From Bacilli bacterium (GTDB lineage Bacteria; Bacillota_I; Bacilli_A; RF39; UBA660), in NCBI GenBank assembly GCA_045580645.1, contig JAZNOG010000026.1, forward strand, positions 1 through 38,890: a DNA stretch of 38,890 nucleotides, written 5' to 3'. Below, piece by piece: positions 1-24,024 of the stretch. The notes under the pieces are model-generated. The model was given only the letters and a program-made list of their open reading frames with translations, searched no databases and had not been told where the DNA came from. The position numbers were made by a program, and so were the translations under genes. Every line of letters begins with the position of its first letter. Within the stretch, counting starts at the first letter, position 1.

Positions 1-1
1 T

Positions 2-998: not shown

Positions 999-1055
999 AT
1001 TACAAGTGCACCTCTTTTTATTTACACTTAATTATATGTTAAGAATGATATATTT

Positions 1056-1081
1056 AAAAAAAACACATCTTTAAAATGTGT
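1056..1081 (-). terminator. intrinsic terminator downstream of the RDD-family gene
   Basis: On the minus strand, ACACAU-loop-AUGUGU (6 bp) is followed by a run of 8 U (plus-strand A-run 1056-1063). Confidence 0.55.
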
Positions 1082-1101
1082 AATTTATCAATAAAATAAA
1101 A

Positions 1102-1758
1102 TTATATTTCTTTTTCATCATAAACAGCTTCAATTACATGAGTATCTTTCTTTTCCTCTAAATTAACATCAACTACACTTGTTTTAGCTAAAATATCATG
1201 AAGCCCTCTTCCATCAAATCTCCAAAACATCATTATAATTGCAGCATACATTAAAACAGTTCCAATATTATTAAAACCCATATTAACATAATAATAAATA
1301 TTTTCTTTTAAAATTAATACAAAAACAACTGATAAAATAGTAGCAAATAAATTATTAACAATTAAACTTCTAATAAAATAACTAAATATTGAAACTTTTC
1401 CTCCATTATCAGAAGTAACCTTTATTTTCATTAACTTCTTTCCAACAGTTTGCCCTTTCATAAAATATTGAAAAACAACAAAATATAAAATTAAAACACT
1501 AATACCAAGAACATTATAATTAACGCCAGTTCTATTCATTTCATAACTTAAACTAATTATTTGTTGATTATATTCTTCCTCTGATATTTCCTTATCATTA
1601 TATGAAACCATAACCTCATTAATCTTTTCCTGATAATCACTATATTTATCTAAATTAATATTTAAAAAATCAAAAGTAGAAAAAACACTTATAATAATAC
1701 TTACAATTAAAATATCAATAATATACGCTATACCTCTTTTTAAAATTATTTTGTTCAT
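1102..1758 (-). CDS. RDD-family integral membrane protein
   Basis: Multi-TM protein with the RDD-type N-terminus (KRGIAYIIDILIV) and GQTVGKKLMKIKV. Start moved to the ATG at 1758, preceded by GGAGGG; the track start at 1809 gives an unlikely extension. Confidence 0.7.
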   Translation of the reverse strand: MNKIILKRGIAYIIDILIVSIIISVFSTFDFLNINLDKYSDYQEKINEVMVSYNDKEISEEEYNQQIISLSYEMNRTGVNYNVLGISVLILYFVVFQYFMKGQTVGKKLMKIKVTSDNGGKVSIFSYFIRSLIVNNLFATILSVVFVLILKENIYYYVNMGFNNIGTVLMYAAIIMMFWRFDGRGLHDILAKTSVVDVNLEEKKDTHVIEAVYDEKEI

Positions 1759-1819
1759 AAAATCCCTCCATATATATAATACTAAAAAAAAGAAAATGAA
1801 GCAAAACATACTTCATTAA

Positions 1820-2935
1820 CTATTCGTTATTTAATGTTAATTTAATATCAACTATTTTAACTTCTTTACCCCTTACATAAGTTAATTTAATAGTGTCTCC
1901 TGGTGAATATTTATATAACTCATATCTTAAATATCCAACACTCTTAACTTTTTCATTATTAACCTTAGTAATAACATCTCCCTTTTGAAGTAAACCCTCA
2001 GCAGGAGAATTATCTGCAACTGCAACTACTACCGCACCACTTTCTATAGAATTATCTAACATAATTCTATTTTGATACAAATAATATGTATCAGTTACAT
2101 TCACCATAGAAACACCAAGTAAAGGCCTTTCTAATTTTTCGCCTTTTTCAAACTGTTCAACATGAAGCATAACATCCTCAATCGGAATTGCAAATCCAAT
2201 TCCTTCAACTTCATCCTCAACTATTTTCAAAGAATTTATTCCTATAACTTCACCATTTGAATTTACTAAAGGTCCACCACTATTACCTGGATTAATCGCA
2301 GCATCTGTTTGAAGAACTTTCATTATATAATCTCCAGAACCATTTGTATTAGAAACACTTACCAACCTATCTTTACCTGATAAAATTCCTTTTGTAACAG
2401 TTCCCATATACTCTAAATCCACTGGAGTTCCAATAGTAAATACAGTATCACCAAGTTTTGACTCCTCACTAGAACCAAGTTCTGAAACCTTTAAAACTTC
2501 ACTTTTATCAATAGCAATAACTGCTATATCCAAAAGTTCATCTCCACCTAAATAAGTTGCATCAACTGTTTTTTCATTAGATAAAGTAACCTTTAAACTA
2601 GTATTACCACCAACTACATGATAATTAGTAAGTAAATACCCATATTTAGAATCCACTTTATATACAAATCCAGTTCCAGTTGAATATAATTTATCATTCT
2701 TAAAATTTTGAATTAATACAACTGCATCATATATTTTATCAACAGAATCACTTATCCCCTTTTCGTTAATTGTAACCTTATTTTCACAAGCAGTATAACA
2801 AACACCATTTGATGAAGAATAACCACCAAAAAGCTGATCTTTAAATTTATAAATACAAAGAATAGTAGCAAAAACACCCATAAAAAACACTACAAAACAA
2901 ATTACTATTTTAGAAACAACTTTATTTTCTGTCAT
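1820..2935 (-). CDS. htrA: HtrA/DegP-family serine protease with N-terminal membrane anchor and C-terminal PDZ domain
   Basis: Trypsin-like triad contexts TNYHVVGG, DIAVIAI and GNSGGPLVN. PDZ-like tail (AEGLLQKGDVITKVNNEKV). Confidence 0.9.
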   Translation of the reverse strand: MTENKVVSKIVICFVVFFMGVFATILCIYKFKDQLFGGYSSSNGVCYTACENKVTINEKGISDSVDKIYDAVVLIQNFKNDKLYSTGTGFVYKVDSKYGYLLTNYHVVGGNTSLKVTLSNEKTVDATYLGGDELLDIAVIAIDKSEVLKVSELGSSEESKLGDTVFTIGTPVDLEYMGTVTKGILSGKDRLVSVSNTNGSGDYIMKVLQTDAAINPGNSGGPLVNSNGEVIGINSLKIVEDEVEGIGFAIPIEDVMLHVEQFEKGEKLERPLLGVSMVNVTDTYYLYQNRIMLDNSIESGAVVVAVADNSPAEGLLQKGDVITKVNNEKVKSVGYLRYELYKYSPGDTIKLTYVRGKEVKIVDIKLTLNNE

Positions 2936-3882
2936 AAAAACAACTCCCTCTTTTCTATATCAATAATATCCATAAAGTTTTCAGGAAATCCCATTCTATC
3001 TAAAATTTTATTTATTGGAATAGTTCTTAAATTATACTCTAAATTTTCAATTACACTCTTAAGTTCCAACATTAAATTTCTAACTTCAGATTCCTTAAGC
3101 ATAGACTTCATAATAATAATTAACGCAAATAAATCATTCTTTCCATATATAAATTCATTATTCATAATAGGAATTTTAAGTAAATTATGATATTTACAAT
3201 CATCTATATATTTAAATGTTCTATTATCATACAAAATATCCTCATGAGCACATAAATTTCTATAATTCGAAAGTATTGGAAGATAATCTAAAAATTGACT
3301 AAGTTCTACATCATATAAATCAATAATTGCATATTGATCTTCCTTCTTCAAAATAGAAAAAAGCTCAGTAACAATACCAAAAGATAAAACCTTTACTAAA
3401 ACCCATAAAGGAATATAACCATAATTATTTATATAATGCTGTGTTGCAGAATGTTGTGTTGCATTAACCTTAATTTGTCTTTTCATTTTATTTAACAAAT
3501 CATTAACTTGTCTTCTTTTTTCACTAGAAGTATTAAAATTATTAGGATTTAAATAATTCTTTTCCCTATAACCATATTTTAATGATAATTGATATGAAAT
3601 TATAGACTTAAGATTATTTTCAATAATAAGAATATTTTTAAATATAATATTTCTTAGCTCCCTATCGAATAAAAGTAAACTATACACTTCTTCAAATCTA
3701 GTTCCATCAATATATACCTTATTATCTTTTGACTTCATAAAAGGATGACGATAACCATTAAGAAAAAAATAATTTTCCCTAAGCAATATCTCTTTCGCAT
3801 ACTTTTCATCATTTATAACAAGATTCTTACTTCTTAAAATTTCAATTTGTTCATCTAATGTCTTAAATATTTTATTCCCCAT
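2932..3882 (-). CDS. Abi_2 (AbiD/AbiF-like) abortive-infection family protein
   Basis: The N-terminus FKTLDEQIEILRSKNLVINDEKYAKEILLRENYFFLNGYRHPF matches the AbiD/AbiF-type family signature, and the ~316 aa size fits. Its stop overlaps the htrA start (ATGA at 2932-2935). Confidence 0.8.
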   Translation of the reverse strand: MGNKIFKTLDEQIEILRSKNLVINDEKYAKEILLRENYFFLNGYRHPFMKSKDNKVYIDGTRFEEVYSLLLFDRELRNIIFKNILIIENNLKSIISYQLSLKYGYREKNYLNPNNFNTSSEKRRQVNDLLNKMKRQIKVNATQHSATQHYINNYGYIPLWVLVKVLSFGIVTELFSILKKEDQYAIIDLYDVELSQFLDYLPILSNYRNLCAHEDILYDNRTFKYIDDCKYHNLLKIPIMNNEFIYGKNDLFALIIIMKSMLKESEVRNLMLELKSVIENLEYNLRTIPINKILDRMGFPENFMDIIDIEKRELFL

Positions 3883-3984
3883 TAAATCCTCTCCTAGTAT
3901 AAAAATTATATCACATAATTTTAAAAAAATATAGCATTAAAATATTAAAAAATAAAAAAGATATAAACAAACTATATATCTTTA

Positions 3985-5172
3985 TTAATCAATCAAATTC
4001 TTTAAATTATCTACTTCTAACTTTAAAACATCATTGTCAAAGTCATTAAATAAATAACTATATCTAAATACAAAAAATCCATTATAATTACTCTTATTTC
4101 GCGCAATTATTACTTGTTTTTTTATTATATTATCATTTTCAATCCATTCATTTTTACCAGTTCCTGCAAAAGTATCCTCTAAACCAGCTTTATAAATTGA
4201 AAGAGCAATATATAACTTAGTATCTGTCTTAATTAAATCATTCCAAGTATCAACTGTTTCAATATAAGGTTTATTAGAATTATCAAATCCATAATAAATT
4301 TGTGGAATAATAAAATCTAAATATCCTTCATTTTTTAAAATATATTCCACATCCAAATATTCTTCATTTAAATTATTCTCTATATTACCTGAAGGAGATA
4401 TACCAAATAAAACATCTTTTTGAACACTTTTAACAGTTTTATAACTTTCCTTTATTAAAGTATTTATAATATCAATCCTATATTCTTCTATAGTAAGTTT
4501 TCCACCATTATTAACATAATCCTTATAATTTTTCTCATCTATAGACTTGCTTGGATAAAAATAATCATCATATAAAACACCATCAACATCATAATTAGAA
4601 ACTACTTCCTTAACACCATCTAAAATGAGTTCTAAAACTTTGCTACTAGCAGGATTAAAATAAATACCACCTTCACTAACTTCAATATCATTTGAATTTA
4701 TCCAATCATAAAAATATGAATCTTCACTAATAGAACTAGTATCAGAAGTATTTCTTATTCTATAAGGATTTATCCATGCATATAAACTAATCTTTTTTTC
4801 ATGACACTTAGCTATAAAATACTCTAAAATATCAAAATTTAAAGCATCACCTTCATTAAGCGCAACAACACTAGAAGTTTCAAATAAATTAGATTCATAA
4901 ATTGCATCCGCAAAAGGTCTAACCTGCAAAACAACATTATTTAACCCATAACTATGAACATTATCAATCATTTGATCAATAAATTGTTTCTGCAATTCCT
5001 CATCCTTACCCTTTAAAGGACTATAATCTATATAAGAAATAAAAACTCCCCTAACTTCTTCATTATTTAAATCATTATTAACAAAATTATCATTATTTTC
5101 ATCACTATATCCACTATACAAAAAATAAATACCAATAACAAATAATATAATAATTAACAAAACTTTCTTCAT
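3985..5172 (-). CDS. secreted/lipoprotein glycosyl-hydrolase-like family 10 protein (YngK/YddW-like, UPF0748)
   Basis: Signal/anchor peptide followed by a TIM-barrel-like pattern (RGVFISYIDY, VVLQVRPFADAIYES, YAWINPYR, DGVLYDDYFYP). Confidence 0.6.
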   Translation of the reverse strand: MKKVLLIIILFVIGIYFLYSGYSDENNDNFVNNDLNNEEVRGVFISYIDYSPLKGKDEELQKQFIDQMIDNVHSYGLNNVVLQVRPFADAIYESNLFETSSVVALNEGDALNFDILEYFIAKCHEKKISLYAWINPYRIRNTSDTSSISEDSYFYDWINSNDIEVSEGGIYFNPASSKVLELILDGVKEVVSNYDVDGVLYDDYFYPSKSIDEKNYKDYVNNGGKLTIEEYRIDIINTLIKESYKTVKSVQKDVLFGISPSGNIENNLNEEYLDVEYILKNEGYLDFIIPQIYYGFDNSNKPYIETVDTWNDLIKTDTKLYIALSIYKAGLEDTFAGTGKNEWIENDNIIKKQVIIARNKSNYNGFFVFRYSYLFNDFDNDVLKLEVDNLKNLID

Positions 5173-5855
5173 AACTTTACACCAAACCTTCCTTTTAAAT
5201 ATTCCTTTTCAGTAACATATTTATTATCCTTCTTTATAACATGTTTACTATCTTTATAAAAATTATTAAATCCTTTGATTGTTTTAACTTTTTTAAAATT
5301 AAATTTATCCAAGTATCTTTCAAGTAAAAATCTGTTATATAAATAATCTTGTCTTCTTAAATAAATAAAAACTTCATAAAATAAAACTAAAACCATACAA
5401 GTCAAATTTGTATTGGAACTTTTAAATAAAATAAAAACTATAAATAAAAAAGATACATAAACAGCTATCTTATTTCCCTTCTTAAATGGAAATATATAAT
5501 TTAAAACTATATTTAAAATCTTACCACCATCAAGAGGATAAATAGGCAATAAATTAAAAAATAATAAAGCAAAATTATAATTCTTAAAAAGTAAATAATT
5601 TCTATAACTAATCAAATTATTATCAAACATAACACAAATTATTAAAAAATATAACATTTGAGTCATTGGACCAGAAATTAAAATTAAAAATTCCTCATAA
5701 AGTGGTTTATTTAATTTTTCATTAAACTTAACACAGCCACCAAAAGGATAAATACAAATCTTATCTAAATTCCATTTAAATATCAAAGAAGCACTTAAAT
5801 GTCCTAATTCATGAATAATAATAAGAGAAAAAATAATCATAAATTCTTTATACAT
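5169..5855 (-). CDS. spoIVFB: M50 site-2 metalloprotease, SpoIVFB-like (pro-sigma-K processing type)
   Basis: HELGH zinc motif plus NLLPIYPLDGG second motif; polytopic membrane protein. Lies directly after the M23-like gene and mreCD, as in Bacillus spoIVFA-spoIVFB. Confidence 0.75.
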   Translation of the reverse strand: MYKEFMIIFSLIIIHELGHLSASLIFKWNLDKICIYPFGGCVKFNEKLNKPLYEEFLILISGPMTQMLYFLIICVMFDNNLISYRNYLLFKNYNFALLFFNLLPIYPLDGGKILNIVLNYIFPFKKGNKIAVYVSFLFIVFILFKSSNTNLTCMVLVLFYEVFIYLRRQDYLYNRFLLERYLDKFNFKKVKTIKGFNNFYKDSKHVIKKDNKYVTEKEYLKGRFGVKL

Positions 5856-5910
5856 ACCAGTAATAACTACTAAAAAACAAAGGCAAATAGTTAAAGGATG
5901 AATATAAATT

Positions 5911-6510
5911 TTATTTAAGATATTCTTGATAATCTAAATACTCCCCATCTTTAGAAAAAACTAAATATAAATTACTACTAGCTTCCCCCAAAAACTCTCC
6001 TTTATTTACATAATCATATAAATTAACACTTATATTTGAAATATTACCATACCAAACATCAACACCATCAACTTGTTGAATAATAACAGTTTTTCCATAT
6101 CCATCCTTTTCACCAGAAAAAACCACTATCCCACTTTCTAGTATTGGAACAAGATATTGAGCATCAACAGTAAGTTTAACTCCATCCTTGTAAATGCTAG
6201 AATCACTATATGATAAACTTTCATTAAAAACAGAAACAACATCATCTTTAACTATTTTTTCAAAAGGCAAAATATCTCCAAAATTATCCTTAAACCACTT
6301 ATTTATTGAAGCAAAACTTATATTATGACTAGATATATACTTATAAATAACTTGATTGTTATTCTTATCTATCTTTAAAACAATAAGCCCCACCAAAAAT
6401 AAAACAATACAAATCATAACTTTAAATAACAATTTAACAAAAAAACCTTTTATACTTTTTTTACTTTTTTGTTTCATTAAAAACTTATTAACAGACTTAT
6501 ACTCACCCAT
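5911..6510 (-). CDS. membrane-anchored degenerate M23/LytM-domain protein, SpoIVFA-like
   Basis: One TM helix and a C-terminal LytM-like fold (GIVVFSGEKDGYGKTVIIQQVDGVDVWYGN...VNKGEFLG). Sits upstream of spoIVFB. Start set to the ATG at 6510 after GGTAGGTGA. Confidence 0.6.
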   Translation of the reverse strand: MGEYKSVNKFLMKQKSKKSIKGFFVKLLFKVMICIVLFLVGLIVLKIDKNNNQVIYKYISSHNISFASINKWFKDNFGDILPFEKIVKDDVVSVFNESLSYSDSSIYKDGVKLTVDAQYLVPILESGIVVFSGEKDGYGKTVIIQQVDGVDVWYGNISNISVNLYDYVNKGEFLGEASSNLYLVFSKDGEYLDYQEYLK

Positions 6511-6542
6511 TTTTATCACCTACCAAAATATATGATAGATAA

Positions 6543-7028
6543 CTAATATTTAAGTTTTTTATTATAACCAAAAATACGACCTTTATATACAAAAATAAAA
6601 ATAAGAAAAAATAAATAATTCAAAATTAAAGAATGACTAAACTTATAAAAAAAATCATTTATATCCATAAAACTAAACCCAAGTAAATTAAGTAATAAAA
6701 GCACTAAAAAATCATACAAAAATACACATAATATAAAAGACAAAAACAAATTAAAAACTTTTCTATTTCTATTTAATAAATGAATAATTAAACCAATAAC
6801 AATCAAAACTAAAACATTTAAAAATATAAAAGAACTATAAAAAACATCATATAAAAAACCAATAACAATCAAAATAATAAAAAAACTTTTTTTAGAAAAT
6901 AAATAATACATTATAGGAATAAAACTAATAAAAATCATAGGTGTAAAATATGATAAATTATTATAAGAATAAGGTATAATTTGCCAAAGACTAAAATCTA
7001 AAAACAATACAAATATTAAAAAAATCAT
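6543..7028 (-). CDS. mreD: rod shape-determining protein MreD
   Basis: Small, very hydrophobic 5-TM protein. Its start overlaps the mreC stop (ATGA at 7025-7028). Confidence 0.75.
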   Translation of the reverse strand: MIFLIFVLFLDFSLWQIIPYSYNNLSYFTPMIFISFIPIMYYLFSKKSFFIILIVIGFLYDVFYSSFIFLNVLVLIVIGLIIHLLNRNRKVFNLFLSFILCVFLYDFLVLLLLNLLGFSFMDINDFFYKFSHSLILNYLFFLIFIFVYKGRIFGYNKKLKY

Positions 7029-7801
7029 TTGTCTTCCTTAAGAACTGCTACATATTTAATATTATTAAAATCAATATCATTACTAACATATAATATATTA
7101 CTTATTCCAAAACTATCCTGTTTTATTTCCTTGACAGTGCCAAGTAAAATACCACTAGGCAAATTACCCATTCCAGTTGTCATAACCTTATCACCTAACT
7201 TTACATTATCATAATTGTTAATATCTTTTATTAAATAAAAACCATCATTAAATTCAGTAACAGAACCATAAATATTTTCCTTAGAACTTGACACTTTGAT
7301 AGATATGTTTACATCTTTGCCATTATAGAGTTTGACAGTGGAACTATTGTCAAATGCATCATTAATCACGCCAATTAAACCACCATTAGCAATAACTGCA
7401 TCACCAGTTTCTAACCCATCATTTAATCCTTTATCAATAGTTATTATATTTTGAAAATACATTTTATCATTCATAATAATTGTAGAATAAATAAGTTCAT
7501 ACAAAGAATAAACCTTTTTTAAACCAAGTGCACTTTTAAGTTCTAGTATTTCCTTTTCAAGCTCCGAAACTTTTAAATTATTATTTTCATATTCCATAAG
7601 TTTAATGTTTAAATCCTTATTTTCATTATAAATATGCTTATAATCCTTAAATAATAAAAATTCATTATATATTTTGGAAATATTAAAAAAATGATCTTTA
7701 ATCTTAAAATTAAAATTTATTTTACTATTTATAATAAAAAATAAAGCTAAAGAAAATATAATAAGAAAAAGAACCCTATAAAATTTTTTATATTTTTTCA
7801 T
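7025..7801 (-). CDS. mreC: rod shape-determining protein MreC
   Basis: N-terminal TM helix, coiled coil (LKVSELEKEILELKSAL) and beta-rich C-terminal domains (GDAVIANGGLIGVI, GDKVMTTGMGNLPSGILLGTV). Confidence 0.85.
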   Translation of the reverse strand: MKKYKKFYRVLFLIIFSLALFFIINSKINFNFKIKDHFFNISKIYNEFLLFKDYKHIYNENKDLNIKLMEYENNNLKVSELEKEILELKSALGLKKVYSLYELIYSTIIMNDKMYFQNIITIDKGLNDGLETGDAVIANGGLIGVINDAFDNSSTVKLYNGKDVNISIKVSSSKENIYGSVTEFNDGFYLIKDINNYDNVKLGDKVMTTGMGNLPSGILLGTVKEIKQDSFGISNILYVSNDIDFNNIKYVAVLKEDK

Positions 7802-8493
7802 ATCTTCCTCATAAAACTGTCATTATCAAAAAAACTATAATAATTGTCATCACCAAAGATAATATGATCAATAACAGGTATTTGCTGAAGCTTTCCAATT
7901 TCGACAAGTGATCTAGTTAAAAATACATCATCTGGACTAGGCGAAACATCACCACTTGGATGATTATGCATACAAACTATCGATGAAGCCGATAACAAAT
8001 ATGCCTCCTTAAATATTTCTCTAGGATGCACAATACTTTTATTTAGTGTTCCCATAAATAACAACTTCCTTTCTATTAACTCTTTTTTAGAATTTAAATA
8101 TAAACAGTAAAAATACTCCTTTTTCTTATCACAAAATAAATATTTATTATATTCATAAATAACTTTTGAATTATTATAAATTTCTTTATTTAAATTACTT
8201 TTAATTAAATAAAGCCTCTTTCCTAGTTCAATAGTTGCCAAAAGTTCTATAGCTTTAGCTTCCCCAATACCCTTAATACTTTTTAACATTTCAATATTTA
8301 TTTCTTTTAAATTTTCTAACTTTTCAATTTTTTTCAATAGATTTGTGGCAACAGAAGTTACACTTTCACCTTTTGTCCCACATTTAAGTATTATAGATAA
8401 AAGTTCTATATTCGATAAACTATCTGTGCCAAACCTAAGAAGTCTTTCCCTAGGCCTTTCTTCTTTTGGAACATCTTTAATTAACAACTCCAT
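7798..8493 (-). CDS. radC: RadC-family JAB/MPN-domain protein (UPF0758)
   Basis: PRERL N-terminus, HhH region and the JAMM motif HNHPSGDVSPSPDD. Sits upstream of mreC as in Bacillus. Confidence 0.9.
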   Translation of the reverse strand: MELLIKDVPKEERPRERLLRFGTDSLSNIELLSIILKCGTKGESVTSVATNLLKKIEKLENLKEINIEMLKSIKGIGEAKAIELLATIELGKRLYLIKSNLNKEIYNNSKVIYEYNKYLFCDKKKEYFYCLYLNSKKELIERKLLFMGTLNKSIVHPREIFKEAYLLSASSIVCMHNHPSGDVSPSPDDVFLTRSLVEIGKLQQIPVIDHIIFGDDNYYSFFDNDSFMRKI

Positions 8494-8944
8494 TTTCTAC
8501 TACCATCTCCTTATAATTAGAAATAACTATTTTTTCTATACCAATTAAATCTTCACCATTTGAAGCAATTGATGTAATTTTATCATATTCAGTTAAAATA
8601 TTTAGAAAAGAATAATTACTTACATATTTTTCCTTTATATATATATTATTCGCTAAAGACTCGTAATACACCTTGATATTTTCTGCAGTTTTTTTATTTT
8701 TTGTAATTCCAACATACAAATGATATCCATCCTCTTCCTCTAAATACAAATGGTCTTTATAATTTTTCACATTAGACTTTAGAGCTTCTAAACTAGAATA
8801 AACACCCATTTGAACAAAATAAACTTTTTCACCCTCTTCAAAAACAGATAAAGAATTTTCATTATAATCATTAAAAAACACTTTTCCTATTAAAAAACCA
8901 ACAACAATTGATAAAACAATAGGCACTAAAAATTTTACTTTCAT
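8477..8944 (-). CDS. membrane-anchored SPOR-domain-like protein
   Basis: TM anchor plus YFVQMGVYSSLEALKSNVKNY...GYHLYVGI, typical of SPOR repeats. Start set to the ATG at 8944 after GGTGAT. Confidence 0.5.
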   Translation of the reverse strand: MKVKFLVPIVLSIVVGFLIGKVFFNDYNENSLSVFEEGEKVYFVQMGVYSSLEALKSNVKNYKDHLYLEEEDGYHLYVGITKNKKTAENIKVYYESLANNIYIKEKYVSNYSFLNILTEYDKITSIASNGEDLIGIEKIVISNYKEMVVENGVVN

Positions 8945-9008
8945 TATTATCACCACTACTAGTATAAAATAACAAAAATAAAAAAAATGTCGAAAAAAAA
9001 AGAAGATA

Positions 9009-9515
9009 TTACTCTTCTAAAAAATCTTCTCCTTTAAACGGTTCACATCTTAATAAATCATTATAATCTTGCTGTCTTAAAACTTCATATAAAACAATTG
9101 CAACACAATTTGATAAATTTAAAGCTCTAACATTTTCAGTCATAGGAATTCTCATACATCTATCCAAATTTCCTTTTAATAATTCCTTAGGAATACCAGT
9201 GGATTCCTTACCAAATATTAAATATATATTTTCATCACTATTACTATAATCAAAAGAAGTATGAGGTTTTTTACCATATCTCGTAAAATAATAAAATGTT
9301 CCATCATTCTTATTTAAAAAATCTTCAAAATTTTCATAAACTTCAAAATTTAACTTATCAAAATAATTAACACTACTTCTTTTTACATATTTTTCATCTA
9401 AAGAAAAACCAAGAGGTTTGATTAAATGAAGTTTACTATTTGTTGCAACACAACTTCTAATAATATTACCAGTATTCTGTGGTATCTCTGGTTCATATAA
9501 AACAATATTTATCAT
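9009..9515 (-). CDS. trmL: tRNA (cytidine/uridine-34 2'-O)-methyltransferase, SpoU/TrmL family
   Basis: MINIVLYEPEIPQNTGNIIRSC start, ~165 aa, and the SPOUT knot region LIFGKESTGIP...RIPM...RALNLSN. Confidence 0.85.
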   Translation of the reverse strand: MINIVLYEPEIPQNTGNIIRSCVATNSKLHLIKPLGFSLDEKYVKRSSVNYFDKLNFEVYENFEDFLNKNDGTFYYFTRYGKKPHTSFDYSNSDENIYLIFGKESTGIPKELLKGNLDRCMRIPMTENVRALNLSNCVAIVLYEVLRQQDYNDLLRCEPFKGEDFLEE

Positions 9516-10018
9516 AATTCATAACCTTCCAAAAATTCTTTAACTAAATTATTAACATCAGTAATATCGTCACTTGGACTTAACAAATCAATGATTTTAC
9601 CACCACTAAAAACCACAATTGAAGGATAATTATATAATTTTTTTATTAAATCTTCATGTTTATATTCATTATAAATTCTAGTAAGTAAATGATTTTCATC
9701 ACTATTATAACCTATATTTAAATATACAATATCATCTGACAAATTATTCTTAACTATATAATCTTTAAACTTATTTTCAAAATTACGACACTTACTCTCA
9801 CTAGAAGAACACATATAAACTACTAAAAAATCTCTTTCTCTTACAACATTATCTAAATCATTATAATTAACTTCCCTTAAAACAGACGAAATAACAGAAG
9901 TTCCAAGTTTAGAATCATTATATTGTTTATATAAATTTAAAGCATAAATTGTTAAAAGAATTGTAAATGTCATAATAAAAAATAATATAATATAACTTTT
10001 TAAACTACCCTTTTTCAT
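9512..10018 (-). CDS. membrane-anchored thioredoxin-fold-like protein of unknown function
   Basis: One TM helix, then a ~130-aa domain whose spacing resembles a thioredoxin fold (FLVVYMCSSSESKC...PSIVVFSGGK). No CxxC active site. Start at the ATG at 10018 after GAGGTG. Confidence 0.35.
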   Translation of the reverse strand: MKKGSLKSYIILFFIMTFTILLTIYALNLYKQYNDSKLGTSVISSVLREVNYNDLDNVVRERDFLVVYMCSSSESKCRNFENKFKDYIVKNNLSDDIVYLNIGYNSDENHLLTRIYNEYKHEDLIKKLYNYPSIVVFSGGKIIDLLSPSDDITDVNNLVKEFLEGYEL

Positions 10019-13579: not shown

Positions 13580-14128
13580 TCACTTTTTCCCAAAAACCGA
13601 AAGTATCTTAGATATTTCAAACAAAATATCATTACACTTATTAACAGCAAAACCTTTTCCTATAGCTTTTCCTCCAATAGTTAAAGCAGAAATAACGCCA
13701 GTTAATATAAGTATTAAATAAAAAGAATTAACATCTAAAATATTAGAAAGTTTAAGCGCAATTGAAAGTCCACAAGAACCACTAATAACACCACAAATAT
13801 CTCCAATTACATCATTACAAAAAGATGAAGCCTTATCCCTTTTATTTATTAATTTTATTGCAATCTTAGAACCTTTTATCTTTTGAGATGCCATAGAATG
13901 AAATATCTTTTCATCTGCTGTTGTAATAGAAACCCCAATAATATCAAATATAACACCCAAAAATATAAAAAATAATAACAGAAAAATTGAAAGCAATATA
14001 TTTGCCTTAGGTATTATAAGTTCTGATACCAAAGAAAGCAAAAAAGATATAACAAAAGATAAAATAGTAATTAATAAAATCCATGATACATTCTTATCAG
14101 TCTTATTCTTATTTTTCTTTTTTTCCAT
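13580..14128 (-). CDS. four-TM membrane protein (~20 kDa) with a basic loop and a DxxxD motif; possibly OLE-associated protein A (OapA)-like
   Basis: Four hydrophobic helices. K-rich loop SQKIKGSKIAIKLINKRDK. NDVIGDICG (D106/D110 counting from the ATG at 14128). Its SD, AGGTGA, overlaps the stop of the upstream 252-aa gene. The OapA assignment is inference from size, topology and motif only. Confidence 0.35.
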   Translation of the reverse strand: MEKKKNKNKTDKNVSWILLITILSFVISFLLSLVSELIIPKANILLSIFLLLFFIFLGVIFDIIGVSITTADEKIFHSMASQKIKGSKIAIKLINKRDKASSFCNDVIGDICGVISGSCGLSIALKLSNILDVNSFYLILILTGVISALTIGGKAIGKGFAVNKCNDILFEISKILSVFGKK

Positions 14129-14133
14129 AGCTA

Positions 14134-14892
14134 TCACCTAAAAACATCTTCTCTTATTTTCTTCAATATCTCCAAAACATCATGATTATGAGCACTAGAA
14201 CACATACCAAAACATAAAAACAAATTTTTAATAACATCTATATTATGTTTATCTAATCTAAGAATTCCATACTTTATCTTACTAGAATTATTTCCTATTA
14301 TTTCATTACTATTTAAAAACTCTAACATAGGAATATCCATATAAAGCATTGGTTGAACCCCAGTAGCGTATTGCTGTTTTTGAATAGTAATTTCAGATAC
14401 AATAGAACAAGAATCACTAAGCATATTAAAAGTAGGAAGAGTTATAACAGACTTAAAAAAATCAACATTATTTATCTCAACTTCGCCTTCAACTATTGCT
14501 TTAATAGGATACATATCCTGTAAAAATTCTTTTATATTTTCTATAAAATTAATTAAATCTTCTACTTCATTCTTACTTATTAAACCTATTTTACAAGCAT
14601 AATAAAAAATTTCTGATAATTCATAAGGATTCTTATTCTTTCCATTTGCACCTACAAAAACTAAATTAGTTAAAGCAGTTGTTTTACTATCATCATTTAC
14701 CTTAACATCATAACCAATTTGCCATTCAACATAACTATTCTTACTTATCAAAGTAGACTTAGGTCCAAAACTTTTTCCATATTCTTGAAAGTGATCTCTA
14801 TATTTACATCTAAATTTTCCCTGACTAGTTAAAGGAACAAAAACATCAATATAAGAATCATTTACTTCATATTTCATCTGTGGAACTACCAT
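14134..14892 (-). CDS. hypothetical cytoplasmic protein (252 aa); candidate restriction-endonuclease partner of the divergent methyltransferase
   Basis: GGAGG SD before the ATG at 14892. No motif I can assign with confidence. Divergent from the MTase gene, with 123 bp between them. Confidence 0.3.
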   Translation of the reverse strand: MVVPQMKYEVNDSYIDVFVPLTSQGKFRCKYRDHFQEYGKSFGPKSTLISKNSYVEWQIGYDVKVNDDSKTTALTNLVFVGANGKNKNPYELSEIFYYACKIGLISKNEVEDLINFIENIKEFLQDMYPIKAIVEGEVEINNVDFFKSVITLPTFNMLSDSCSIVSEITIQKQQYATGVQPMLYMDIPMLEFLNSNEIIGNNSSKIKYGILRLDKHNIDVIKNLFLCFGMCSSAHNHDVLEILKKIREDVFR

Positions 14893-14962
14893 AAATAACC
14901 TCCAATTAATAATTATATATTTATTTTAACAATTTTTATGTATTATTACAACAACCAATATA

Positions 14963-14991
14963 TTGAAGAAAAAAAACTATTTTGCTATAAT
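14963..14991 (+). promoter_or_regulatory. sigma-A-type promoter of the methyltransferase gene
   Basis: TTGAAG (14963-14968), 17-bp spacer ending in TGc, then TATAAT (14986-14991). SD AAGGAG at 15001-15006. Confidence 0.6.
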
Positions 14992-15015
14992 AAAATAACA
15001 AAGGAGACTAAAAAT

Positions 15016-16167
15016 ATGATAAATCTATCAGAAAATACCCACCTAACTCGTGAAGATATCATTAAAAACGGAAGTATATTCACGACAGAAAATTTAGTAA
15101 ATATAGTATACAATATGCTTGAAAAATATATAGACGATAACAAAATAATTGCTGATTTCGGCGCAGGTTATGGTTCATTTATCAAAGTCTTTCAAAACAA
15201 AGGAAAAAAATGTTTTGGAACAGAAATTGATAAACAATCATACGAACTACTAAAAAAACAATTTCCAAATACAGAATTTTATCTAGAAAACTCTCTTTTT
15301 AACGTAAATAGAAAAAAATACAACATCAAAAAAAATGACGAACTAATTATAATAGGAAACCCACCTTACAATGACATAACAAGCCTCTACAAAAAAGGCA
15401 ACAAAGGAAATATATTATGCGATGAAGACATAAAATCAAGAGATTTTGGAATATCATTTTTAAAAGCCTATAACAAATTAAATGCTAAATACATATGTAT
15501 ATTACATCCACTTGCCTATTTAATAAAAAAACAAAATTTTAAATCATTAGATAATTTTAGAGAAAATTATAAATTGATAGATGCTACAATTTTTTCAAGT
15601 AAAGAATTTGAATCAATAAAAAAGACAAACTCAGAGTTCCCCGTAGTAGCGGCACTATATGAAAAAAACAATAACGGAATGGACTTCAACTATATAGAAA
15701 ACTTTAACTTTAAGATACTAAATTCAAACAAAACATTATGTTTAAATAAAATATCCACAATTGATGGAAAAATAAATAAATATCCAAAAAAAGAAAAACA
15801 AGAAAAACTACAATTTTATACCTTAAGAGACATAAATGCCTTAAAAAGAAATGCTACCTTTATAGAAGGAAAAATAACTAATGGTATAGATGTCAATATT
15901 AAAAACCTATATCAATATGCTTGGTTGTATTTTTTCAAAAATAATTTTAATCCAAAAGAAAACAATTTTATATATAACAATTTATCCCCTTTATATACAA
16001 AAAAAATTGAAGAAAAAAAATATCAAAACGCACTAGTATCGTATGCGTTCAATAATTGTCCTTTAATAAAAAAATACATTTCAAAAGAAGAAATAGAAAA
16101 AGAATATGGAATAATAATAAATAATTATGAAATAATACTAGAAGAAATAGAAAAACTATATATATAA
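15016..16167 (+). CDS. N6-adenine DNA methyltransferase, gamma class (Eco57I/TaqI-like)
   Basis: Motif I IIADFGAGYGSF precedes motif IV IIIGNPPYN, and a variable C-terminal half fits a target-recognition domain. Start moved to the ATG at 15016 (SD AAGGAG 9 nt upstream); the predicted promoter lies inside the track's longer ORF. Confidence 0.8.
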   Translation: MINLSENTHLTREDIIKNGSIFTTENLVNIVYNMLEKYIDDNKIIADFGAGYGSFIKVFQNKGKKCFGTEIDKQSYELLKKQFPNTEFYLENSLFNVNRKKYNIKKNDELIIIGNPPYNDITSLYKKGNKGNILCDEDIKSRDFGISFLKAYNKLNAKYICILHPLAYLIKKQNFKSLDNFRENYKLIDATIFSSKEFESIKKTNSEFPVVAALYEKNNNGMDFNYIENFNFKILNSNKTLCLNKISTIDGKINKYPKKEKQEKLQFYTLRDINALKRNATFIEGKITNGIDVNIKNLYQYAWLYFFKNNFNPKENNFIYNNLSPLYTKKIEEKKYQNALVSYAFNNCPLIKKYISKEEIEKEYGIIINNYEIILEEIEKLYI

Positions 16168-16190
16168 AATGCAAAATTTGCATTTTTTTT
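16167..16190 (+). terminator. intrinsic terminator of the methyltransferase gene
   Basis: AAUGCA-loop-UGCAUU hairpin directly after the TAA, followed by a U-run (16183-16190). Confidence 0.55.
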
Positions 16191-16193
16191 AAT

Positions 16194-16215
16194 AAAAAAA
16201 AAGAGCAAACGCTCT
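16194..16215 (-). terminator. intrinsic terminator of the large ncRNA
   Basis: Minus strand AGAGC-GUUU-GCUCU followed by 9 U. Lies back to back with the MTase terminator. Confidence 0.55.
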
Positions 16216-16806
16216 AAATAAATGGTCTATTCTATAATTAATTTTACGTCTTAGGTCAAGTTGGATTTCCCTATTTCTTACTATCCGTTACCAGATAAGC
16301 AGTTCCCTTTTAAAAGAAACAGTAGTATGTCACCATATCTACGACTTGATTACCACTTAGTACGCACTTAAATCTTATAGAATGTCACTCTAGGGGTTTT
16401 CCCCAATAACTTGTTATCTATTAATACTCTTTTGCAACTAAAGTTTCAAAAAGCGATTCCTATAATAACTGGCCAATTATTATAAGATTGTTCCTTTATC
16501 CCCCTTAATCACTCAAGTCAAGCTACTCTATTCATAACTCATCGCCACATAATAGGTTCTTTCTTATCTCGTAGAAAATCATCAAGTTGTCTGTATAGAT
16601 TTTCCACAATAATAAGTCTCCACGAATAAATGGAAACATTCCTTACATGCCATTGTAAGTGTCCATAAATTCTTAACCCTCAGCATCCACCCTAAACTGG
16701 GCGTAAAAGGCAAACACCAAGGACTTCACAGATATGCTCTTTAGTGGATTTTTAGGCCCACCCTCATAGATAACTTATTAACTAGAATAATGTGCCATCT
16801 GTTAAT
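16196..16806 (-). ncRNA. large (~610 nt) structured non-coding RNA candidate, OLE/ROOL-class; class unassigned
   Basis: No ORF in any frame. About 35% G+C by hand count (210/600 over 16201-16800), against 13-28% in sampled flanking lines. Own promoter and terminator. 5'/3' closing helix (16798-16795 with 16225-16222; 16789-16783 with 16234-16228). Hairpins at 16487-16458, 16666-16630 and 16404-16393. Confidence 0.7.
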
Positions 16807-16812
16807 AAACTA

Positions 16813-16841
16813 ATTATACCACAAAACTTAAAAAAAATCAA
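16813..16841 (-). promoter_or_regulatory. sigma-A-type promoter of the large ncRNA
   Basis: Minus strand TTGATT (16841-16836), 17-bp spacer, then TGgTATAAT (-10 at 16818-16813). The -35 box contains the TGA stop of the LysM gene. Confidence 0.65.
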
Positions 16842-20171: not shown

Positions 20172-21251
20172 TTATAATTGTTCAACAAAAGTATCATATA
20201 TTCTAATATACCTATATGTTATCCTATTAGTTCCCTCTTTTTTCTCTTTTATAACTACATTAAGTTCTATCAATTTATTTAAAATATTTAAAATAGAATT
20301 TATATGAACATTAAGTTCATCAGCCATTTCTTGCGCTGTAAACACTATTTTTTTCATCATTAAAGGATGCATTTTTAGAACAATACTTCCTTTTATATTT
20401 TGTTTTATTGTTTCCTCATCTTCATTATAAACCCTATTGATTTTTTCTATTCTGCCAATATTTCTCGTGCATTGGTCAATAACACATTGTAAGAAAAATC
20501 TAATAAATCCATCTATGTTACCATTTCTACATTCATTAAGTGCATTATAGTAATTAGCTTTAAATAATTCTATAATTTCTGATAAAAATAATATTGGTTC
20601 ATCATCTTTTAATTTAGCAAGTTGTAATGTCATTAAAGCTCTTCCCATTCTTCCGTTTCCATCTTTATATGGATGAATAGATTCAAATTGAACATGAGAG
20701 ATTGCCACTTTAATAAAAGATTCTTCATCATATAAATTATTCATATATTCCATTAAATTTTCTAAAAGAAAAGGCACATCTTCAGGAACTGGTGGAACAA
20801 ATGTTGCTCCTTCCTTACCAAGACCACGCAGTCCTATATAGTTTTGTATAGTTCTAATTTCTCCAGGTGATTTTTCTTCCCCTCTTACACCTGATAACAA
20901 AATTTTATGCATTGAATTGATCATATGAATACTAAAATCCTTATTTTTTAAGGTTTCATTAGCATACTCAAGCATTGATTTTAAATTTTTAACTTCCTTA
21001 ATACTATCATTAGACTCTTTAAAATTCATATAATACATATCATCTGGTGATATTTGAGTCCCCTCTATTCTAGATGATCTAGTACTTTCACCTAAAACTA
21101 AAGAATCCAAAAAATATTTTTGGTCAAATTTGAACATTTTTAATAATGATTTATATTGACCGTATTTATCATTAGCTTGACCTAACAATTTAATAGTTTC
21201 TTTATCAAGTTTATATGAAAAAGGCAACATTTTAGCTTTATATGGCTCCAT
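20172..21251 (-). CDS. Fic-family AMPylase-type protein (class II, with an intramolecular inhibitory helix) and a C-terminal winged-helix domain
   Basis: Fic motif HPYKDGNGRMGRAL. N-terminal inhibitory motif SSRIEG ((S/T)xxxE(G/N)). wHTH-like tail. Confidence 0.85.
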   Translation of the reverse strand: MEPYKAKMLPFSYKLDKETIKLLGQANDKYGQYKSLLKMFKFDQKYFLDSLVLGESTRSSRIEGTQISPDDMYYMNFKESNDSIKEVKNLKSMLEYANETLKNKDFSIHMINSMHKILLSGVRGEEKSPGEIRTIQNYIGLRGLGKEGATFVPPVPEDVPFLLENLMEYMNNLYDEESFIKVAISHVQFESIHPYKDGNGRMGRALMTLQLAKLKDDEPILFLSEIIELFKANYYNALNECRNGNIDGFIRFFLQCVIDQCTRNIGRIEKINRVYNEDEETIKQNIKGSIVLKMHPLMMKKIVFTAQEMADELNVHINSILNILNKLIELNVVIKEKKEGTNRITYRYIRIYDTFVEQL

Positions 21252-21380
21252 TTAATCACTCTCCTTAGTTATAATATATCATATTTTTGTAAAATTTATA
21301 CATTAAAATGCAAATTACTGTATATTTTACACTATATCTTAACAAATTTCAACACTTTTTTGTTTAAAATTTACACAAAC

Positions 21381-21402
21381 AAAAAAAGCAAGTATTAACA
21401 AG
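21381..21402. repeat. 22-bp direct repeat, copy 1 (AAAAAAAGCAAGTATTAACAAG)
   Basis: 21/22 identical to 24068-24089. Confidence 0.8.
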
Positions 21403-21412
21403 CTTTTCATCA

Positions 21413-21436
21413 CTAATCTTTAATTACTACAACTAA
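21413..21436. repeat. 24-bp direct repeat, copy B; a relic copy of the 3' end of the 651-aa gene
   Basis: 21/24 identical to 22068-22091. On the minus strand it reads L V V V I K D stop, against L V R V I K D stop for the real gene end. Confidence 0.7.
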
Positions 21437-21437
21437 A

Positions 21438-22043
21438 TTAATATCTTTTTCTTATTAGTTTCTTTTTATCATTTGAATCAATAACATACAGTTGTTCCCT
21501 CAAATTATTAAATATTTCTAAATTACCTTTATAACCCATAGGAGATACAGGACTTGGATGATAAATTGGTATAACTTTAATATCATTTATATAAAATTCT
21601 TTTCCAACCACTTCACTAAACTTTTTATATTTTATATTTAATACAGATTTTGTCGCAAAATCACCTAATGTTAAAACAATTTTTGGCTGAATTATTTCTA
21701 ATTGCATGCATAAAAATTTCCTACAATTATTACTACAATTACTCAAATACTTTCTATCTTTAGGAAAACATTTAATAGCTTCTAAAAAATACAAATCTTC
21801 AAGTTTTAATGAAACTATATCTAATAACCTTTGTAATACTATTCCTGAAGGTAATAATTTTCCATTAACGTCATACCAAGCAATTCCACTTTTTCGCCAA
21901 CCATTCCTTGCAGGTGCTTCACCTAATATTACAATATCATTTGCTTTACCCATAGAAACTGTATAACTATTAAGAAATTTTTCAATCATATCACCACATA
22001 AATTACAGTTATGTATTTCATTATCTATATCATCAAGTAACAT
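21438..22043 (-). CDS. uracil-DNA glycosylase superfamily protein (family 4-like)
   Basis: Motif A LGEAPARNGW and motif B PIYHPSP. N-terminal CNLC plus further Cys residues could ligate an Fe-S cluster. GGAG SD before the ATG at 22043. Confidence 0.7.
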   Translation of the reverse strand: MLLDDIDNEIHNCNLCGDMIEKFLNSYTVSMGKANDIVILGEAPARNGWRKSGIAWYDVNGKLLPSGIVLQRLLDIVSLKLEDLYFLEAIKCFPKDRKYLSNCSNNCRKFLCMQLEIIQPKIVLTLGDFATKSVLNIKYKKFSEVVGKEFYINDIKVIPIYHPSPVSPMGYKGNLEIFNNLREQLYVIDSNDKKKLIRKRY

Positions 22044-22067
22044 AAAAAACTCCTTTTATATTTTATA

Positions 22068-22091
22068 ATTAATCTTTAATTACTCTAACTA
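22068..22091. repeat. 24-bp direct repeat, copy A (the true 3' end of the 651-aa gene)
   Basis: See 21413-21436. Copies A and B bracket the UDG-like gene exactly. Confidence 0.7.
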
Positions 22092-24024
22092 ATGTATTAC
22101 TATCTAACTTCATCAGTTGTTCATTATAATCAATTAAACTTCTTATACTACTTTTAAACTTTAAACAAATAGAACTTATTTTCTTAACTTGTTCTTCTAC
22201 CAATAAATCACTTTCAATCACTTCATTACACTCTATTAATGTTAATTTTAAAAATTCATCTATATCACTTTTTAAACCAAAATTAGCCTTATCAATAACC
22301 TCTTTAGCATATTCAAGTGTTTCCTTAATAAAAGACTCTATAACCATATAATTAGTTAAATCACTAGATAACTTCTCATTAGTTACCTTAACTACTTCTT
22401 TATCATTCATAAGATTCTTTATATTATTTTTAATTATTTCTGTTTTTACTAATTCTATAAAACTATCCAAAGATTCATAAAAACTTTTAATTACTAAAGT
22501 CTTATCATCACTACTACATAAACTATTCTTATATTCTAAAAGTATAACTTTAAACCTTTCTAGAAAAACATCATCACCATATTCTTTTACAAATAAATAT
22601 TTTTCTCTCAATAACGAATTATTATCTTCTTCAATATTTTCTATATTTAACAGTTCACTTATAACATTAAAATTTTCTTCTATATAAATGTTTAATTCAT
22701 CAAGTAGTTTTGATAGTTCTAGTTCTAACGTTCTTTCAATATTATCTGTTTCTAAAGTAAGTTTTATACCATCACTATAATCTTGTTTAGTATAACCACT
22801 ATATTTATTTAAAATAACAAGTAACTTATCTTTAAAAAGATTGCTACTTTGTTCATCAAGTTTTTCTAAAATCAAAGCTATATCAACAACAGTAGAAAAT
22901 ACACCATCTTTATTTTCTAAACTATTAAGGAAACTAATTGACTTACTAACTTTATTACTAAAATCAGATGTCCTAAAAGAAATATTTAACAAAAGCAAAT
23001 TTAAACTAGATATAAAATTACCTCTAACTTGAAGTAAAGAATTAGGACTTAAAGATAAAGAAGTATCCCTATCATATGTAGGTTTTACACTTTTAACACC
23101 TTCTTGATAAGTTCTTTTAATTTCTTCTAATTTTTCTAAATATATTTGTCGTTCTTCTTCCTTTAAATTTTGGGTTAAACCAAGTATTTTATTCACTAAC
23201 TTTTGTTCTTCCGATAATTCTTTATTTTCAATAACATTTATTTTAACTTCATTTGCAACAATGTTATGCACAAAATGCCTATCAATAAATTTTTTTATAG
23301 TAGAACTATTAAATTTACCATTATATGTATGGCTATCATTAAAACAAACAGATGAAAATAACAATTTTTTTGTAAGCGCAATATCATTTTTCTCATCTAT
23401 CAAATATTCTATTGGCTCCACTTTAACCCAATAATGTTCATTTTTTCTTATTTTTCTACCATCTGATAAAATTCTTCCCTTCATATAATATTTACCCAAT
23501 ACAAAAACATATTTATCCCCATCATACTCATATTCATAGTATTCTTTTGTATCAATATTATAAATTTTCCCTGTTAATTTTAAAGTATTATTTTTAAGAT
23601 TTTTAGTTAATTTTCTTGATAATTTTTTATCAACAATTGTCTGTGGATATTCATCACATAAAACCTCAAAAACCTCTGTACCAATTCTTGATTTAATAAA
23701 GCACATAGAAGAAATTGATGAATAAGAAGTACAAAGTCGATAATTTAAATTAGGATAATCTAGTAGTGAAGATATATACTTTATCCCTTTTTCAGTAACT
23801 GTAAAAACACTATCGGTAAAAACTTCATGATTAGTCTTAGTCCACCACCAACCAGCACCTTTTTTTAACCCCGTTTTGTTATCAATATATTCATAAGGAA
23901 TGTAACTACCACCCAAAAGAATAGCAAAATCTGTTATTTCTGCTTTTGTCCCTATTCTTTTAAACATATCAAGACAATCTTTACCCCATATTTGATCTTT
24001 TTCTAATAAAGTAAATTCTCTCAT
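22069..24024 (-). CDS. large hypothetical protein (651 aa): N-terminal ~230-aa globular domain plus a long helical, repeat-like C-terminal region
   Basis: The N-terminal domain has GAGWWWTKT and VEPIEYLIDEKNDIALTKKLLF, which from memory resemble DUF6273-type domains. The remainder is E/K/L/N-rich and predicted helical. Possible promoter TTGCTT-17-TATAAT (-10 at 24050-24055). Confidence 0.5.
   Translation of the reverse strand: MREFTLLEKDQIWGKDCLDMFKRIGTKAEITDFAILLGGSYIPYEYIDNKTGLKKGAGWWWTKTNHEVFTDSVFTVTEKGIKYISSLLDYPNLNYRLCTSYSSISSMCFIKSRIGTEVFEVLCDEYPQTIVDKKLSRKLTKNLKNNTLKLTGKIYNIDTKEYYEYEYDGDKYVFVLGKYYMKGRILSDGRKIRKNEHYWVKVEPIEYLIDEKNDIALTKKLLFSSVCFNDSHTYNGKFNSSTIKKFIDRHFVHNIVANEVKINVIENKELSEEQKLVNKILGLTQNLKEEERQIYLEKLEEIKRTYQEGVKSVKPTYDRDTSLSLSPNSLLQVRGNFISSLNLLLLNISFRTSDFSNKVSKSISFLNSLENKDGVFSTVVDIALILEKLDEQSSNLFKDKLLVILNKYSGYTKQDYSDGIKLTLETDNIERTLELELSKLLDELNIYIEENFNVISELLNIENIEEDNNSLLREKYLFVKEYGDDVFLERFKVILLEYKNSLCSSDDKTLVIKSFYESLDSFIELVKTEIIKNNIKNLMNDKEVVKVTNEKLSSDLTNYMVIESFIKETLEYAKEVIDKANFGLKSDIDEFLKLTLIECNEVIESDLLVEEQVKKISSICLKFKSSIRSLIDYNEQLMKLDSNTLVRVIKD

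Follow-up and report, generated by a model that had tools for sequence, protein, structure and literature searches.

An OLE RNA locus of a gut Bacilli bacterium with a PabI-type restriction-modification cassette between ole and oapA

The OLE RNA gene and its membrane protein partner

The DNA described here is a stretch of 38,890 nucleotides (nt) from a Bacilli bacterium of the RF39 lineage (contig JAZNOG010000026.1 of assembly GCA_045580645.1), and this whole stretch is referred to as the window. It carries a gene for OLE RNA (ole) and, downstream on the same strand, the gene for a 182-amino-acid (aa) membrane protein, OapA, with a restriction gene (R) and a methyltransferase gene (M) standing between the two. 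To our knowledge, few bacterial non-coding RNAs of still unknown biochemical function are larger than OLE RNA. OapA is the partner protein most strongly correlated with this RNA in phylogenetic profiling. Contigs and loci used for comparison are denoted by numbers with the prefix L. The features of the RNA and its partner are as follows.

16813-16841, minus strand: predicted ole promoter (TTGATT, 17-nt spacer, TATAAT with a TG extension; 10/12 consensus matches), directly upstream of the OLE match
16206-16814, minus strand: OLE RNA gene, full length (Rfam RF01071, model positions 1-616)
16202-16215, minus strand: ole intrinsic terminator from the terminator scan, a GC-rich hairpin AGAGCGTTTGCTCT followed by U9
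13580-14128, minus strand: oapA, OLE-associated membrane protein A, 182 aa from ATG (OapA profile, DxxxD motif, fold)

A scan of the whole window with Rfam gave a single above-threshold match, to OLE RNA, with 393.3 bits against a gathering cut-off of 50 (E 3e-112). The match runs from end to end of the model and bears out the initial annotation, which had proposed an OLE-type RNA from the sequence alone. The RNA shares 84-87% identity with OLE of L001 and L004, two relatives, and the genome records nearest to it in OLE sequence are metagenome-assembled genomes (MAGs) of uncultured gut or rumen "Bacilli", "Tenericutes" and "Erysipelotrichaceae". It occupies a gene-free stretch between a LysM-domain gene and position 16167. 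Its terminator hairpin, with a fold energy of -5.9 kcal/mol (z = -4.4), is kept in L001 and L130. A special role for the GTAC inside OLE (16360) was considered and rejected, because the position is variable and GTAC is found there in 31 of 129 loci.

The membrane protein was compared with proteins defined by their position next to OLE. A scan of 185,579 species-representative genomes for the conserved OLE 3' motif located at least 120 OLE loci in Bacilli, Clostridia and other Bacillota, and the first open reading frame (ORF) after OLE with a length of 100 aa or more was taken once per listed locus, giving 110 ORFs. The window protein matches 104 of these 110, with E values of 1e-26 to 1e-62 in phmmer searches among the loci listed. 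A hidden Markov model (HMM) built from the 104 synteny-defined proteins, with the window protein and its close relatives left out, scores it at 225.2 bits (E 1.3e-67). Two aspartates, D106 and D110 of the motif NDVIGD, occupy alignment columns in which all 104 synteny-defined OapAs have Asp, and the remaining invariant residues (D62, G109, G117, K154 and K158) are all present. The two aspartates correspond to D100 and D104 of Halalkalibacterium halodurans OapA, the residues mutated in its PM1 variant (PMC9723947). The reading frame is open up to a GTG at 14137.

The predicted structure points in the same direction. An AlphaFold2 model made from 38 homologues (mean predicted local distance difference test score, pLDDT, 87; predicted template-modelling score, pTM, 0.77) contains four long helices at residues 9-41, 44-70, 97-131 and 135-163, plus short loop helices. 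The basic loop SQKIKGSKIAIKLINKRDK, read from the sequence at residues 74-99, holds eight Lys or Arg. Foldseek places transmembrane domains of CorB and CorC in its first four ranks (7m1t, 7m1u, 7cfg; probability 0.99-1.0, template-modelling score, TM-score, 0.5-0.6). A sequence search of the PDB returned chance matches only (E 0.03 or worse) and no deposited OapA structure, and NCBIfam holds no model for the protein. The length, position, aspartates, four helices and basic loop are all as the initial annotation described them.

These matches raise the question of whether the protein might be a generic CNNM/MpfA-type Mg2+ transporter that lies near the OLE gene by chance. Such a reading could draw on the Pfam CNNM match (PF01595) and on the CorB and CorC structures that head the structural matches, but the Pfam match is weak, at 16.6 bits against a cut-off of 28.4, and a score below the cut-off is itself how OapA behaves. 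The published H. halodurans OapA combines sub-threshold CNNM similarity with a CorB-like predicted fold, and OapA has been described as a four-helix protein with a weak relation to CNNM, with DxxxD as its distinguishing mark and with almost constant co-occurrence with ole (Fernando and Breaker 2024, PMC11332333). Moreover, the window protein has neither a CBS nor a CorC domain within its 182 aa in total, it carries the DxxxD that CNNM domains lack, it scores 225 bits with the synteny-defined OapA profile, and its orthologues abut OLE. A chance transporter is thus exceedingly unlikely. Based on the HMM score, the invariant residues including DxxxD and the four-helix CorB-like model, the 182-aa protein is, as far as sequence and predicted fold can tell, an OapA orthologue, as had been suspected, and the pair it forms with OLE is an ordinary representative of the family.

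The two genes between ole and oapA

The start of oapA lies 2,077 nt past the end of the OLE RNA, in agreement with the roughly 2 kb given initially, and exactly two genes, 14134-14892 on the minus strand and 14938/15016-16167 on the plus strand, stand in between.

14130-16193, no strand assigned: inserted segment of about 2.06 kb with the M-R cassette; homology to L130 breaks off at 16194 and sets in again at 14129
14134-14892, minus strand: R, PabI-family restriction DNA glycosylase, 252 aa (Pfam PF09522 and 7cfa alignment)
14923-14951, minus strand: predicted R promoter, by inference also that of oapA (TTGTAA, 17-nt spacer, TAAAAT with TG)
14963-14991, plus strand: predicted methyltransferase promoter (TTGAAG, 17-nt spacer, TATAAT with TG), downstream of the ATG at 14938
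15016-16167, plus strand: type II DNA methyltransferase, 383 aa (ORF open from 14938; PADLOC MTase_II)
16166-16191, plus strand: probable methyltransferase terminator, a 9-bp AU-rich hairpin followed by U8

The 252-aa protein had been regarded as an orphan, a description that no longer applies. It scores 72.4 bits with Pfam RE_R_Pab1 (PF09522; cut-off 25) and aligns over residues 15-246 with the sequence of the R.CcoLI structure 7cfa (E 1.2e-31); the match to R.PabI (2dvy) is weaker, at 4e-8. The catalytic, AP (apurinic/apyrimidinic) lyase and base-contact roles established for R.CcoLI (PMC7806768) were transferred to R by hand on the 7cfa alignment. The catalytic triad Y61, H235 and D238 aligns with Y52, H222 and D225 of R.CcoLI, and K87 aligns with its AP-lyase residue K71. 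All ten GTAC-contacting residues of R.CcoLI are kept in R, comprising K26, R28, E56, Q58, I59, F228 and the Q...GVQ.M.Y block. On this residue set, R is a clear member of the PabI family. Proteins of this type in Bacilli MAGs already carry such a label in database annotation (P0219), so that the present case extends the record and is no discovery of the family in these bacteria.

The partner gene encodes a methyltransferase that matches the PADLOC MTase_II model at 1.5e-55, and FGAGYG and NPPY motifs can be read from its sequence. Its ORF is open from 14938 (409 aa), which is 26 codons longer than the frame from 15016. The true start is probably the ATG at 15016, because homologues of the protein begin to align at Met27 of the long reading frame, an AAGGAGA ribosome-binding site stands before this position, and the predicted promoter lies inside the extension. 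NCBIfam reports weak similarity to the rRNA methyltransferases Erm and KsgA (E 1.6e-5 and 4.8e-5, far below the cut-offs), a resemblance that reflects only the shared fold for binding S-adenosylmethionine.

The same pair of genes occurs elsewhere. Homologues of R that are 57-60% identical are found in L131, L133 and L135, each head-to-head with a gene of 383-385 aa whose product aligns end to end with the window methyltransferase at 57-62% identity, and M and R have thus diverged in parallel across the cassettes. The divergent pairing is seen in L131, L133, L135 and L137, with a promoter region of 105-123 bp between the genes, and the element TGnTA(T/A)AAT lies upstream of R in other cassettes too. 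The flanking genes differ in each context, being a UDG and a GIY-YIG gene in one, DUF1003 and VanY in another, and a nicotinamide mononucleotide transporter in a third. Because the same pair is bordered by different genes in each other contig, the M-R pair is, judged from this distribution, a mobile two-gene unit.

Some of these cassettes have features of their own. In L137 (2115-5045), two tandem PabI-family genes (245 and 257 aa) follow a divergent gene of 397 aa. In L131 (1168-5555), the cassette adjoins a UDG-superfamily gene and a GIY-YIG/DUF4357 gene paired with a Dam-like methyltransferase, and this region resembles a small defence island. The window, too, has a UDG-family gene, about 5 kb away from its cassette.

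GTAC depletion in cassette-carrying contigs

The sequence contacted by PabI-type enzymes is rare in the window. Of the sixteen 4-base palindromes, GTAC is the most depleted, with a ratio of 0.14 between observed and expected counts, and in 300 second-order Markov simulations of the window the minimum was 25. Observed and expected numbers of GTAC sites in the window, in carriers of the cassette and in OLE relatives are as follows.

Window (38.9 kb): 6 observed, 44 expected
L131, cassette carrier: 0 observed, 11.9 expected
L133, cassette carrier: 1 observed, 11.6 expected
L134, cassette carrier: 2 observed, 10.8 expected
L135, cassette carrier: 3 observed, 7.8 expected
L004 and L006, OLE relatives without the cassette: 78 observed, 72 expected
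L001, OLE relative without the cassette: 27 observed, 33 expected
L007, L008 and L009, OLE relatives without the cassette: 74 observed, 83 expected

Across the carriers L131 and L133-L136, 0-3 sites are observed against 5-12 expected. The same avoidance of GTAC has been reported for the PabI carriers Helicobacter and Campylobacter (PMC10273834). Together with the intact residue set of R and the parallel divergence of M and R, the depletion speaks for an active cassette with GTAC as its target. Within the window, positions 1-10000 and 30001-38890 contain no GTAC site at all, and this loss at the far ends speaks for cassette and flanks being parts of a single genome and against a chimera made in assembly.

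Two further observations concern the composition of the window. GATC is also under-represented, with 31 sites observed against 69 expected. A second variable block, at 20172-24024 on the minus strand, encodes a Fic defence protein of the SoFic type (PADLOC 2.1e-89), a member of the UDG superfamily (21438-22043) and a 651-aa ORF that matches no family; it lies between a gene for a 160-aa protein and a dnaB-like gene, and it is missing at that position in L004. Three of the six GTAC sites of the window fall within this block, which suggests that it was acquired more recently than the DNA around it.

The depletion also bears on whether the two intervening proteins are dedicated partners of OLE, for instance a methyltransferase of the RNA itself together with an accessory protein, instead of a DNA restriction-modification system. 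Both genes sit inside the ole-oapA locus and NCBIfam sees a weak Erm/KsgA similarity, as this would lead one to expect. However, the PADLOC match at 1.5e-55 is to a type II DNA methyltransferase, R retains the full PabI set of catalytic and GTAC-recognition residues, GTAC depletion tracks the presence of the cassette, and the fetched flanks of the homologous pairs have neither oapA nor an OLE-sized gene-free gap (those flanks were not scanned with the OLE model). A role as OLE partners is therefore very unlikely, and the more specific idea of an RNA methyltransferase was rejected on account of the DNA-methyltransferase match, the pairing with R and the loss of GTAC.

Insertion into the ole-oapA spacer

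The initial annotation had suggested that an inserted gene pair split ole from oapA, and comparison with relatives upholds this, with the pair now recognised as a restriction-modification system. In L130, the 3' half of OLE is 98.4% identical to that of the window and the oapA gene is 86.6% identical, and about 57 nt separate the OLE terminator from the start of oapA. This contig, of 0.8x coverage, begins with a YraN-like coding fragment (1-81) that runs straight into the middle of OLE; its 5' end is probably chimeric, and only its OLE-oapA part was used. In L001-L009, OLE ends 8-35 nt before oapA by Rfam placement, so that in relatives lacking the two genes the RNA abuts the membrane protein gene, as the initial annotation had anticipated. 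Window positions 14150-16164 match only M-R cassettes of unrelated contexts (L131-L136, 67-69% DNA identity).

The separation is also exceptional on a wider scale. In most of the at least 115 listed loci in which both are visible, 30-200 nt lie between the OLE motif and OapA, and the 2,125 nt of the window is the maximum among the loci listed. Direct adjacency of ole and oapA is found in about 105 of the 115, in both Bacilli and Clostridia. Only two genes of at least 90 aa lie on the plus strand of the 38.9-kb window, and the methyltransferase gene is one of them. The strand bias of the window is extreme, with 40 of 43 ORFs of at least 90 aa on the minus strand.

No target-site duplication or terminal inverted repeat was found at the cassette ends, where there are AT-rich chance repeats only. 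PabI systems are known to replace short host segments on insertion (PMC4615327), and the missing duplications and terminal repeats fit this mode of entry.

An ancestral M-R pair at this position, lost by deletion in the relatives, would account for the cassette GC fraction of 0.23-0.25, close to that of its neighbours, and for the GTAC ratio of 0.14, which implies that the lineage has long housed a GTAC-specific system. It is nevertheless very improbable, since ole and oapA adjoin each other directly in about nine-tenths of the listed loci from two classes and also in L130, whose OLE 3' half is so nearly identical, the same cassette occurs in three unrelated contexts, and its methyltransferase gene opposes the regional strand bias.

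The other explanation to be weighed is that assembly joined a restriction-modification contig into an OLE locus. The allele was not seen in any other contig, and the related L130 itself seems to be chimeric at its 5' end. Against this, both junctions are clean, host synteny is collinear on both sides, the R frame runs uninterrupted into host sequence and ends on the ribosome-binding site of oapA, and host DNA far from the cassette is likewise stripped of GTAC, which ties the flanks to a GTAC-restricting genome. An artefact of this kind has very little probability, and an insertion into the spacer is the reading followed below.

The surrounding genes are those of the host clade.

17302-16838, minus strand: LysM-domain gene, first in transcription order, upstream of ole
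13534-12206, minus strand: der, downstream of oapA, followed by spoVIF, ruvA and ruvB, also on the minus strand

Contigs encoding OapA of 65-73% identity keep the order LysM-ole-oapA-(0-1 genes)-der-spoVIF-ruvA-ruvB (L004-L009). The position next to der, at first considered atypical for OLE, is thus the normal layout of this uncultured gut Bacilli clade (in L001 and L002 with the exception of LysM). The membrane protein was not seen upstream of der in a genome without OLE RNA, and every syntenic relative fetched has OLE.

Other OLE loci show variation of several kinds. In L001 and L002, the place of the LysM gene just upstream of OLE is taken by pieces of a Dam-like (MethyltransfD12) methyltransferase gene (4292-4917), and restriction-modification DNA seems to be drawn to the neighbourhood of ole. 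Two gut Bacilli MAGs, L032 (4213-4791, plus strand) and L058 (same position, reverse strand of the locus), carry an ORF of about 192 aa with no Pfam match between OLE and oapA; the motif-to-OapA distance of about 750 nt marks another, different insertion in this spacer. No oapA is present within the 8-kb OLE locus in 5 of 120 listed loci (L015, L029, L036, L055 and L101), and in L015, L029 and L101 a dxs-like gene directly follows OLE. Loci of this kind include Clostridium senegalense and an Ammoniphilus MAG.

Expression of oapA after the insertion

The insertion affects the signals around oapA. The methyltransferase gene converges on ole, and two facing terminators together with the antisense gene part oapA from ole. 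The back-to-back terminators noted initially hold up for ole; the one assigned to the methyltransferase is weaker (-6.4 kcal/mol, z = -1.15), is not significant alone and lies below the threshold of the terminator scan. At the other end of the cassette, the TGA stop codon of R lies inside the AGGTGA ribosome-binding site, 5 nt before the ATG of oapA. Elsewhere, homologues of R are followed by a terminator hairpin; R in the window has no terminator of its own, and its last five codons (EDVFR) differ from those of the homologues. Because R lacks a terminator and its stop overlaps the ribosome-binding site of oapA, oapA is probably transcribed from the R promoter, as the second cistron of a joint R-oapA mRNA.

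Comparison with known systems

The locus shares its main features with the OLE/OapA complex of H. halodurans (PMC11332333, PMC12265935, PMC9723947), namely an RNA that fits the Rfam OLE model over its full length, a partner of about 180-200 aa that spans the membrane in four helices and has a basic loop and DxxxD (106-110 in the window, 100-104 in H. halodurans), weak CNNM similarity with a CorB-like predicted fold, and oapA downstream of ole on the same strand. It differs in that ole and oapA are parted by 2.06 kb of foreign DNA and that oapA is probably on the promoter of a restriction gene. An oapA gene directly downstream of ole is the commonest layout, though not a universal one, and the window departs from it. 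The typical neighbours of OLE in Bacillaceae are the isoprenoid genes dxs and ispA, whereas those in the window are LysM and der. OapB and OapC are reported to be missing in some gut clades (RF39, TANB77; PMC11332333). In relation to the Mg2+ transporters CNNM, CorB, CorC and MpfA, the window protein has a similar transmembrane fold by Foldseek but lacks the CBS pair and the CorC domain, has four helices instead of three, carries DxxxD and stays below the Pfam threshold.

The cassette resembles the PabI family (R.PabI, R.HpyAXII and R.CcoLI; PMC4615327, PMC7806768, PMC10273834) in the HALFPIPE-family sequence of R with its Tyr/His/Asp triad, AP-lyase lysine and GTAC contacts, in the tight linkage of R to a methyltransferase with an NPPY motif, in its mobility as a bare two-gene unit replacing a short host segment, and in the strong avoidance of GTAC in host DNA, as in Helicobacter and Campylobacter. 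Two features set it apart. The window and four related cassettes are head-to-head (divergent), whereas the published gene orders are tail-to-tail in archaea and M upstream of R on the same strand in bacteria (PMC4615327). The host of the window is a gut member of the Bacillota, whereas the carriers named in a 2023 review are mainly Helicobacteraceae and Campylobacteraceae, with a few archaea.

Proposed explanation and its implications

Taken together, the evidence makes it highly probable that this is a normal OLE locus of low-GC gut Bacilli whose ole-oapA spacer was invaded by a mobile restriction-modification cassette, with oapA probably carried on the R transcript. The ancestor had oapA directly after ole, and a two-gene cassette consisting of a PabI-family restriction DNA glycosylase and a divergent type II DNA methyltransferase was then inserted into the short spacer. 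From what is known of these families, the methyltransferase would protect the adenine in GTAC, and R would excise unmethylated adenine at GTAC and nick the abasic site by means of Lys87. OLE RNA would still be made from its own promoter and end at its own terminator, and OapA, as a four-helix CNNM-like DxxxD protein, should still bind the RNA and anchor it to the membrane, as the published work on H. halodurans would predict. The R gene appears to have lost the terminator that follows R in other cassettes, and oapA, cut off from ole, would be expressed as the second gene of an R-oapA transcript from the R promoter.

Several points weigh against this explanation. The insertion allele was not found in other public contigs, either by the exact R protein or by metagenome scans for the right and left junctions, and it is documented by one assembly only. 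The membership of the protein in OapA is argued from synteny-defined OapAs of other genera, as H. halodurans is not among the loci listed and other Bacillaceae genera served as comparators. The role of the methyltransferase as protector of the GTAC adenine is likewise ascribed from its family. The depletion of GTAC could partly stem from other GTAC-specific systems in the lineage. Finally, the co-transcription of R with oapA and the strength of either terminator are read from sequence features.

Every component of the locus belongs to a known family; what is new is confined to the arrangement and, for the PabI-type cassette, to its architecture and host range. Two further readings, that the cassette captured the expression of oapA and that head-to-head M-R cassettes form an undescribed PabI lineage, are offered tentatively, with a rather low probability. 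If the capture of the operon is real, loss of the terminator and fusion of R to oapA have made this important host gene depend on the R promoter, and deletion of the selfish element would also silence the OLE partner, a route to stabilisation unlike classic post-segregational killing. If the new lineage is real, these base-excision restriction systems would be widespread among low-GC gut Bacillota and potent enough to clear GTAC from the genomes of their hosts.

The locus also carries a lesson for annotation, in that an "orphan plus methyltransferase" between two functionally linked genes may be a mobile defence cassette. It extends base-excision restriction enzymes and the accompanying avoidance of GTAC to gut Bacillota, in a gene order unlike those published in PMC4615327. 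A genome in which ole and oapA are expressed separately would indicate that co-transcription of the two is not required, and it may serve as a system for asking how the stoichiometry between the RNA and its protein is set.

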